8,648 nucleotides of DNA. It comes from a virus (taxonomy: Duplodnaviria > Heunggongvirae > Uroviricota > Caudoviricetes). A model generated the notes under the pieces. The model had not been told where the DNA came from. It did no database searches and saw only the letters and a program-made list of their open reading frames with translations. Positions 5,949 to 6,486 of the stretch are shown piece after piece (the stretch's first letter is position 1; the number at the start of each line of letters is the position of its first letter). The position numbers and the translations under genes are program-made. Location of the stretch: the IMG/VR virus record IMGVR_UViG_2671180417_000011; one strand, written 5' to 3'.

Positions 5949-6308
5949 ATGAATGAAACAGAACTGAAGCACATTATCGCCCTGCTTCTGGAAGATGCCA
6001 GACAGGTTTATCGACTTAGCCCAAATTCCGCAACGCAGGAACGCATCCGGATAGCGGAAACAGCACTGAAACAGGACAATGGAAACGGCATATCCAAATT
6101 TAGCGCCGCCAGTGAAAATGAAGTAATAGAAATAAACAGCAATATCAGCGACAGTTGCGTCGCTTACAGCCACCAAATAATTCGTGTAAGTGCAAGAATA
6201 ATGGAAGTGATGGCAAGTGAGCTTGAAAAGAACAACATCAAGCCCACTGATTGTTGTTTAAGAACCGTAATGAACGTTATTTATTACTCGATGTTCCGAA
6301 GTCGCTAA
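5949..6308 (+). CDS. Hypothetical protein (119 aa)
   Basis: ATG 5949 with GGAG (5939-5942) at 6-nt spacing; track ORF starts at an upstream TTG. MNETELKHIIALLLEDARQVYRLSPNSATQERIRIAETALKQ...; no family recognised. Confidence 0.6.
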   Translation: MNETELKHIIALLLEDARQVYRLSPNSATQERIRIAETALKQDNGNGISKFSAASENEVIEINSNISDSCVAYSHQIIRVSARIMEVMASELEKNNIKPTDCCLRTVMNVIYYSMFRSR

Positions 6309-6486
6309 CAGCGTCGAGTTTTTCATTAAAAAATGATTCAAATGCATCGTAAAATACGGCAATAGCACCGCCCTTATCTACCGCGGCAGGAACTGCCTTT
6401 TGAGGTATATCTTTCTCCGTAAATTGTGTGTTGTAAGTATCGACAGCCAGCCGCATCAGAAACATCACTTTTTCTTCTTGTGTCAT
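6277..6486 (-). CDS. Hypothetical protein (69 aa), antisense-oriented within the leftward operon
   Basis: ATG 6486 with strong AAGGAG 9 nt upstream on minus strand; 3' end overlaps the convergent 5949..6308 gene by 32 bp. MTQEEKVMFLMRLAVDTYNTQFTEKDIPQKAVPAAVDKGGAIAVFYDAFESFFNEKLDAVSDFGTSSNK. Confidence 0.6.
   Translation of the reverse strand: MTQEEKVMFLMRLAVDTYNTQFTEKDIPQKAVPAAVDKGGAIAVFYDAFESFFNEKLDAVSDFGTSSNK

Follow-up and report, generated by a model that had tools for sequence, protein, structure and literature searches.

What is a small gene with a near-perfect Shine-Dalgarno sequence doing on the strand opposite to a phage early operon? The question is raised by an 8,648-nucleotide (nt) stretch of a Caudoviricetes virus (IMG/VR record IMGVR_UViG_2671180417_000011; the window, meaning the whole of this stretch), which contains the early and immunity region of a Rac/Stx-like lambdoid prophage. 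A reading of the letters alone, hereafter the original prediction, had picked out an open reading frame (ORF) of 69 amino acids (aa) on the minus strand and regarded it as lysogen-expressed cargo with its own expression signals. The leftward (pL) operon of this prophage runs on the plus strand of the window, and the small gene is therefore antisense to it. We are highly confident that it is a genuine gene for an acidic protein of ~60-70 aa, and that it is one half of a mobile convergent cassette whose other half is a ~55-aa partner domain, with polarity and overlap conserved. The elements concerned are:

6277-6486, minus strand: small gene, 69 codons/69 aa, PHROG 2605, RefSeq WP_000189938.1 "hypothetical protein"
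6501-6496, minus strand: Shine-Dalgarno sequence AAGGAG of the small gene, 9-nt spacer to the ATG; AGTGAATTT
5949-6308, plus strand: convergent pL-operon gene, 119 aa, phrog_2982 (from ORF translation and PHROG)
6277-6308, both strands: 3'-3' coding overlap of 32 bp between the small gene and the 119-aa gene (from the coordinates)

The small gene as a coding sequence

The frame, the well-spaced AAGGAG and the 32-bp convergent overlap all lie exactly where the original prediction had placed them. The gene opens with an ATG at 6486-6484 (minus strand) and its TAA stop ends at 6277; the product has a mass of 7.7 kDa and a pI of 4.5. Among the 56 ORFs of at least 50 aa checked in the window, it is the sole case preceded by a 6-mer Shine-Dalgarno sequence, and mononucleotide shuffles yield 0.12 such ORFs per window. 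This rarity is suggestive and alone not decisive; the gene is accepted as real because its conservation provides the decisive evidence. PGAP calls it, as WP_000189938.1, in an E. coli chromosome 99.9% identical to the window, the protein matches the PHROG 2605 profile over residues 1-69 of 69 (E=9.1e-45), and its exact sequence is present in 945 contigs; E. coli and Shigella contigs that carry it number more than 900.

Three E. coli lineages of the gene were compared, namely the 69-aa form of the window, a 68-aa form (59% identity) and a 63-aa form (44% identity). Pairwise synonymous divergence (dS) among these is 0.8-1.1, their indels (3 and 18 nt) are in-frame, and in the invariant N-terminal 15 codons the differences are confined to third positions. 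Between genera, the N-terminal helix of the protein is near-invariant and synonymous sites are variable. An exhaustive profile search returned 16 representatives, every one a small protein of the same family; together with scans of viral and genome contigs, it gave relatives of 58-69 aa, one family throughout, in Klebsiella, Serratia, Salmonella, Buttiauxella and the Edwardsiella phage EPP-1, and the frame is also intact in Escherichia and Shigella. Twenty distinct intact variants, down to 37% identity, occur among 64 viral contigs, some in contexts that lack the leader described below, and a genome-wide scan by species, limited by its search pattern, added at least two further loci (Buttiauxella, Serratia). 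The family consensus reads MT(K/Q)EEKVMFLMRLAVET.N...(variable loop)...IE.IY.K(Y/F)E.(F/L)LDKKL. The original prediction named lack of an open frame in related prophages as one outcome that would refute it; the frame is open across genera, and among the three E. coli lineages the ratio of nonsynonymous to synonymous divergence (dN/dS) is 0.30-0.45.

These observations bear directly on the simplest alternative, in which the ORF arose by chance or its conservation is a by-product of a plus-strand RNA (the precursor of the neighbouring DicF/KilS small RNA, sRNA) or of the overlapping gene. The adjoining leader is indeed strongly conserved as DNA, and the limitation of the overlap with the other gene to 32 bp has also been counted in favor of this explanation. 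Against it stand the codon-position pattern, a dN/dS below 0.45 at saturating dS, the in-frame indels, and a frame that stays intact in the 20 variants, including those found without the leader; conversely, E. coli K-12 has the leader without the ORF. The codon pattern, dN/dS, indels and intact variants exclude a chance ORF, and the explanation as a whole is in our judgment barely credible.

Three of the four phage records examined leave the small gene unannotated. A 90%-identity cluster look-up files the protein under an unrelated 73-aa Kil, which supplies the representative and most of the members; this placement looks like an artefact of database clustering.

A convergent two-gene cassette

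As far as sequence comparison reaches, the distribution of the two genes shows that the unit of inheritance comprises the small gene and only the C-terminal domain of the 119-aa protein, a point that the original prediction missed. This partner domain (phrog_15476) covers residues ~68-119 of the protein (nt ~6150-6305, plus strand), that is, its C-terminal ~55 aa, and carries the motif LL.ISS..L.VLKSEL..RG(I/L/V)KPTP.NLR.VM.II.KSLP. It stands alone as a protein of 57-64 aa in Klebsiella, Serratia, Salmonella and some E. coli, and elsewhere it is fused to four unrelated N-termini:

119-aa protein of the window: E. coli
201-aa protein, phrog_1363 + phrog_15476: Qin-like prophages, E. coli
121-aa protein: Edwardsiella phage EPP-1
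protein with a ClpX-type zinc finger: Klebsiella

Hidden Markov models (HMMs) of both families were run over 91 sequences, consisting of the window and 90 fetched loci. The small gene was found in 89 of the 91 and the convergent partner domain in 67 of those 89; no locus had the partner without the small gene, and the 22 small-gene loci without a recognisable partner domain constitute one metagenomic lineage. The convergent overlap noted in the original prediction is thus a conserved feature, measuring 12, 23, 27, 29, 30, 32, 33 or 36 bp in the 67 paired loci. In E. coli O157:H7, a 135-aa protein corresponds to the 201-aa protein minus the partner domain, with a different antisense ORF alongside, which indicates that partner domain and small gene are gained or lost together.

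The cassette occurs in markedly different surroundings. E. coli, Klebsiella and EPP-1 have it in the pL operon, close to the repressor gene. Two Salmonella contigs (L089 and L090, 4001-4348) carry it inside a late operon, where it separates head-tail genes from the tail tube gene; this is a classic position for a moron, a unit of promoter, gene and terminator (PMC3594210). The Klebsiella cassettes adjoin yfdP or rdgC genes, with no kil, dicB or dicF there. Homology between the Salmonella late-operon copy and a Klebsiella pL copy is limited to the interval from ~33 nt before the partner ATG through ~75 nt before the small-gene ATG. Wherever genes have been called, the partner shares the direction of the lytic operon around it and the small gene is opposed to it, so that the orientation against the early operon remarked on in the original prediction holds for pL and is kept in every context found. 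Presence and absence among related prophages, as expected of a moron, are likewise observed: the small gene is absent from K-12 Qin, replaced by other ORFs in O157:H7 and O18, and present in both pL and late operons. The arrangement is also that of a noncontiguous operon, since a gene on the opposite strand has members of a single operon on either side of it. The GC content of the cassette is ~40% vs 47.5% for the window; kil and its downstream gene are also at 39%.

Loss of the small gene has occurred in nature. Shigella phage 75/02 Stx and POCJ13 have lost its N-terminal half and the leader and have retained the partner, which shows that the small gene is dispensable. The deletion in 75/02 Stx (locus L002, 3527-3859) amounts to ~340 bp relative to the window and also removes the 5' part of the KilS-like sRNA; this phage is described as functional despite it.

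Neither protein could be assigned to a known family. The small protein is acidic and has no hydrophobic segment; AlphaFold2 predicts helices at residues 3-21 and 31-65 with moderate confidence (predicted local distance difference test, pLDDT, 64), and it models the partner domain as a helical hairpin (pLDDT 75-87). Searches of the small protein and the partner against Pfam, NCBIfam, PADLOC and PDB sequence profiles gave no match, nor did the small protein and 11 relatives against Pfam even at E<=10, and Foldseek matched neither AlphaFold2 model to a solved structure in the PDB. The fold prediction suggested by the original prediction accordingly supplied helical models for both proteins and no known family or fold for either. 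Two specific identities were tried for the small protein and rejected. SieB is excluded by the lack of any PF14163 match even at E<=10 and by length (69 aa vs ~160-190 aa expected); Rac SieB, of 162 aa, matches PF14163 at 1.5e-31. The Hha/YmoA family (Hha, YmoA, Cnu) was entertained because of an apparent resemblance in an LMRL...AVFY motif; profile-profile comparison disposed of it (hhalign probability 1%, 6 aligned columns), and there was no PF05321 match.

The pairing of two small proteins makes it natural to consider a toxin and its antidote, in which one of the small helical proteins is harmful to host or phage and is neutralised by its counterpart, with antisense control exerted through the overlap. 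Tight co-inheritance across genera and genomic contexts favors such a pair, as do the 3' overlap with its strand-specific hairpin (below) and the prediction that both proteins are helical hairpins that could form a bundle. However, no toxin-antitoxin or defence model was matched in Pfam, NCBIfam or PADLOC, and the architecture is unlike the established types: the genes are convergent and not co-transcribed as in type II, which, with the negative searches, speaks against a type II system, and both partners are proteins, unlike type I. Moreover, 75/02 and POCJ13 keep the partner with half of a small gene, and the 22-contig lineage has the small gene with no recognisable partner, so that neither gene strictly needs the other. 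The toxin-and-antidote idea implicit in the original prediction, which proposed expressing the two proteins alone and together, consequently finds no support in homology and is at odds with natural variants that have either gene without the other; we consider it unlikely.

Expression signals, leader and neighboring genes

In the cassettes outside E. coli, the ~75 nt 5' of the small gene keep the arrangement gcctgtcTTTTCACCAC-N10-GTGGTATCTT-...-CCAAGAAGG-N7-ATG. They contain what we term the canonical element, TTCACC-16/17-TGnTATCTT, which resembles an extended -10 promoter (TTCACC...TGGTATCTT), lies ~40 nt before the ATG and scores 10.3-10.5 against a position weight matrix (PWM); it is found in Klebsiella, Serratia, the Edwardsiella phage, Salmonella and Buttiauxella. 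The same element also holds the palindrome ACCAC-N10-GTGGT, and homology between cassette contexts ends just 5' of the canonical -35. A Shine-Dalgarno sequence precedes the small gene in all lineages, and upstream of the partner no promoter-like element common to the cassettes was found in the copies compared. In the window, the corresponding elements and the leader that carries them are:

6525-6543, minus strand: inverted repeat CTCCAC-N7-GTGGAG, 39-57 nt 5' of the ATG
6608-6580, minus strand: best promoter candidate, CTTTCA-17-TAAACT, -10 ~100 nt 5' of the ATG; weak
6216-6248, minus strand: 11-bp stem-loop, 29-61 nt 3' of the small-gene stop, inside the SEL...KPT codons of the partner
6487-6711, both strands: conserved leader, 225 nt, from the small-gene ATG to the neighboring sRNA; hairpins GGACACGGGTGAG... 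and CTCCAC-N7-GTGGAG
6675-6766, plus strand: KilS/DicF-like sRNA with terminator, upstream of kil; a module separate from the cassette

The inverted repeat of the window with its flanks, CTCCAC-N7-GTGGAGAACT, aligns with the canonical TTCACCAC-N10-GTGGTATCTT and has no usable -35/-10 hexamers. The promoter candidate reads TTTTCA-17-TAAACT in all the other E. coli leaders compared (L005, L010, K-12 Qin, O157:H7 and O18). Inspection by eye for a LexA box or a conserved sigma-E motif found none.

Beyond the small-gene stop, nearly every lineage has a predicted hairpin within the partner coding sequence. The two arms coincide with the codons of the best-conserved partner residues, SEL (AGTGAGCTT) and KPT (AAGCCCACT), which may thus be constrained both as code and as structure. 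G-U pairs make the hairpin much more stable on the small-gene strand, at -15 to -20 kcal/mol vs -8 to -13.6 kcal/mol on the partner strand (12 of 14 lineages); the window copy has -15.6 kcal/mol on the minus strand vs -11.3 kcal/mol on the plus strand. In the Klebsiella and Salmonella copies it is followed by UUUUU(U). Possessing both a promoter-like and a terminator-like element, the canonical cassette therefore looks like a unit of promoter, gene and terminator, which is the definition of a moron; judged from its sequence, it looks like an antisense unit nested in a lytic operon, with the second gene left to transcription from the host operon.

The copy in the window is less complete. Of the "own expression signals" claimed in the original prediction, the RBS stands, whereas a scan found no consensus promoter, and both the canonical promoter and the U-tract terminator are degenerate. 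Transcription would consequently have to start elsewhere in the DicF/KilS leader. None of the three E. coli lineages has the canonical promoter, but their small genes are under purifying selection and are presumably expressed somehow. This state of affairs invites the view that we are dealing with an ordinary lytic-phase gene on the other strand, served by an induced promoter or by rightward or late read-through and not expressed in the lysogen; the window copy, in which no convincing promoter is seen, agrees with it. Such a gene would, however, need head-on transcription against N-antiterminated pL or, in Salmonella, against late transcription; its opposed orientation is kept in two types of operon; and the canonical cassettes have promoter-like and terminator-like elements of their own. 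We regard this explanation as improbable.

The leader deserves attention in its own right. Among E. coli lineages its sequence is better conserved than the small gene is in its variable middle and C-terminal part; in E. coli, the small gene always abuts the DicF/KilS leader 5' of kil or dicB. The leader is also present 5' of dicF in K-12 Qin, where there is no antisense gene. Homology to other prophages breaks exactly at the Shine-Dalgarno/ATG of the small gene, and 846 E. coli records have just the last 37-39 nt in common with the Qin-like version of the leader. In two cases, ORFs unrelated to the small gene follow the same leader and Shine-Dalgarno sequence, ..CCCTCAGGAGGGTGA(A)ATG:

L091 2537-2770: alternative antisense ORF, 77 aa, phrog_10348, in O157:H7 PA20; 23-bp convergent overlap with the pL gene
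L092 2538-2759: alternative antisense ORF, 73 aa, phrog_7249, in E. coli O18; 11-bp convergent overlap with the pL gene

In Rac of K-12 the equivalent slot, between ydaF and the KilS sRNA with kilR, is taken by sieB. The alignment of start codons of unrelated ORF families behind one Shine-Dalgarno sequence would be difficult to account for if this side of the leader did not provide expression signals, and we infer that this sharing supports the idea of cargo put forward in the original prediction: the slot that accommodates the small gene is taken in Rac by sieB, known to be expressed from the prophage, and in O157:H7 and O18 by further unrelated antisense ORFs. Upstream of sieB in Rac K-12 (L019, ~3065-3100), TTCACCACC...GGTGGT resembles the promoter-like palindrome of the cassettes, so that antisense cargo may have a control element in common.

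On the other side of the leader, the sRNA at 6675-6766 scores 29.2 bits against the Rfam DicF model (RF00039), under the gathering threshold of 48 (the L005 copy reaches 45.9 bits), and it aligns better with Rac KilS (b4833) than with Qin DicF. KilS itself associates with Hfq and has been confirmed as an sRNA by northern blot (PMC8175672). From 6763 to 6957 (plus strand), an STnc100-like leader runs into the kil start.

A main role at the RNA level has to be considered as well, in which minus-strand transcription would act as a brake on leaky pL read-through into KilS/DicF and the division inhibitors kil/dicB, the peptide being secondary. The constant association of the E. coli gene with the DicF/KilS leader 5' of kil/dicB would fit such a brake, and so would the swapping in of differing ORFs behind the same leader and Shine-Dalgarno sequence. 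It accords poorly with purifying selection on the small-protein sequence, in which the N-terminal helix is near-invariant while synonymous sites vary; with cassettes located where there is no kil, dicB or dicF (beside yfdP/rdgC in Klebsiella, in the late operon of Salmonella); and with K-12 Qin, which has dicF and dicB without an antisense gene. We consider a purely RNA-level function quite improbable.

The remaining landmarks of the window place the cassette within the prophage:

3800-4507, plus strand: cI
5216-5521, plus strand: N-like antiterminator
6943-7164, plus strand: kil, with a 128-aa gene next downstream
from 7742, plus strand: recE-like exonuclease

The minus strand carries DnaC-like and O-like replication genes, cII and a cro-like gene. 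A stretch of the E. coli AST198 chromosome, adjoining intD and ynfH, is 99.9% identical to the window, and the phages PhiR5_2 and phiSTEC1589-Stx1c have 94-97% identity across this part of it. Several side observations were made in passing. A second small gene at 4664-4873 (minus strand; 69 aa by PGAP, WP_251297385.1, phrog_3946) opposes cI and pL and sits in the gap between cI and N; in lambda, the corresponding gap holds rexAB. The ORF at 5732-5917 (plus strand; region 5467-5917) matches just the C-terminal ~47 residues of 229-aa PHROG families, and because related phages have a 237-aa gene at this place, the window seems to keep a deletion remnant after N. Within 1716-3037 (minus strand), the O-like replication protein contains a (QE)n run as well as repeats of the peptide QQPQQPEAD(W/S). 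Two further occurrences of this peptide in an adjacent 72-aa ORF (2819-3037) point to repetitive DNA, which may represent origin iterons.

Proposed mechanism and comparison with known systems

How, then, might the small gene be used? That it is an independently transcribed, moron-like antisense unit (a "noncontiguous operon") expressed in the prophage state is, in our estimation, an even proposition; its constant setting against the flow of a lytic operon makes prophage-state expression as such plausible. Under this interpretation, the small protein would be made in the prophage while the surrounding lytic operon is silent. After induction, head-on, N-antiterminated transcription from pL would shut the small gene off, and an RNA duplex over at least 93 nt (6216-6308) could add to its silencing once pL fires. 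Since the partner would be made when pL fires, expression of the two proteins would be mutually exclusive. Experiments have established such a logic for antisense ith in phage 80alpha (PMC11087260) and for sieB/sas in P22 (as cited in PMC7067206). In the window, where the RBS and frame are intact and the candidate CTTTCA-17-TAAACT is the signal on offer, expression may be low. The toxin-antidote pair, the RNA-level brake and the ordinary lytic gene each fit the distribution data less well than this antisense-unit reading.

A number of points weigh against it nonetheless. The canonical "promoter" is at the same time an inverted repeat and may instead function as an operator or form an RNA hairpin. 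In the window, a scan for the sigma-70 consensus upstream on the minus strand found no promoter, the candidate CTTTCA-17-TAAACT having a PWM score of 5.6 vs 8.3 for the average best hit in shuffled sequence, and the hairpin at 6216-6248 is followed by no U-tract. Qin keeps the leader without an antisense gene, so that the leader may be conserved for reasons other than the small gene. The two protein models are of moderate confidence (pLDDT ~64) and matched no known fold or family. Finally, literature searches by accession number and peptide string returned no transcription, translation or phenotype data for any family member. The literature on dicBF regulation and on prophage sRNAs, for its part, mentions no antisense gene or transcription start site at this location.

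Two further proposals are tentative, and we would assign each a low probability. The first is that the two predicted helical hairpins bind each other, or share or compete for a target, and act as an accessory or exclusion factor of the lysogen and its neutraliser in the lytic phase, comparable to SieB/Esc and Tha/Ith. The second, also speculative, is that phrog_2605 and phrog_15476 make up a mobile phase-switch cassette, not described before, in temperate enterobacterial phages and, with sieB and at least two ORF families, define a dedicated antisense cargo slot. In such a switch, the prophage protein would come from its own promoter and the lytic counter-protein from the operon; exclusivity would follow from convergent transcription; the terminator hairpin of one gene would be built from the SEL and KPT codons of the other; and in E. 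coli lambdoid prophages the cargo slot would be fed by signals of the DicF/KilS leader. If this is true, temperate enteric phages possess a compact and widespread way to tie a small-protein pair to lysogeny and lysis, for which comparable cases are limited to SieB/Esc of P22 and Tha/Ith of staphylococcal phages. The site beside the DicF/KilS sRNA would be the place where E. coli prophages exchange small antisense genes, making these candidate phage-exclusion or host-modulating factors. There is also a warning for annotation here: the small gene is uncalled in most of the phage records examined, and the partner domain is hidden in fusion proteins.

Several known systems resemble parts of this arrangement. 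The DicF/KilS sRNA and the dicBF operon are its immediate neighbor, their leader being the 5' region of the small gene on the other strand; nevertheless they form a separate module, as Qin has it without the small gene and other genera have the cassette without it. In lambda OOP RNA/cII, txpA/RatA and bsrG/SR4, a short convergent transcript runs over the 3' end of an mRNA, with decay by RNase III possible. The OOP/cII pair and type I toxin-antitoxin systems share the convergent 3' overlap with the cassette, whose convergent transcript differs in encoding a conserved protein. Morons such as HK97 gene 15 are likewise extra units that are present or absent among similar phages and lie in varied places, including the tail-gene region; by comparison, the cassette adds a convergent coding segment whose transcription is left to the host operon and which, in E. 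coli, is fused in frame to the upstream gene.

The closest parallel in position is sieB of P22, lambda and Rac, which like the small gene opposes the pL early operon of a lambdoid prophage. The small gene shows the same arrangement, opposite to pL and between early pL genes and kil, and Rac sieB has a 4-bp convergent overlap with ydaF in a slot like its own. sieB is prophage-expressed and controlled by antisense RNA (sas/sieB in P22, as cited in PMC7067206). The two proteins have no sequence relationship, the small protein being modeled as a soluble-looking two-helix structure, and SieB has its self-protection partner, Esc, made from within its own gene, whereas the partner here is the convergent neighbor. 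In the Staphylococcus aureus phage 80alpha, the nested antisense gene of the Tha/Ith system has its own promoter and lysogenic and lytic expression are mutually exclusive, as shown experimentally for ith (PMC11087260). Tha/Ith is a factor with its inhibitor; its nested antisense layout in a noncontiguous operon is like that of the small gene, but its polarity is reversed: there the operon is lysogenic (cI) and antisense ith is the lytic inhibitor, while here the operon is lytic, and there is no homology. Set against these systems, the antisense moron or noncontiguous-operon arrangement is already known, as in sieB, and what is new in the cassette is the co-mobile convergent partner domain.

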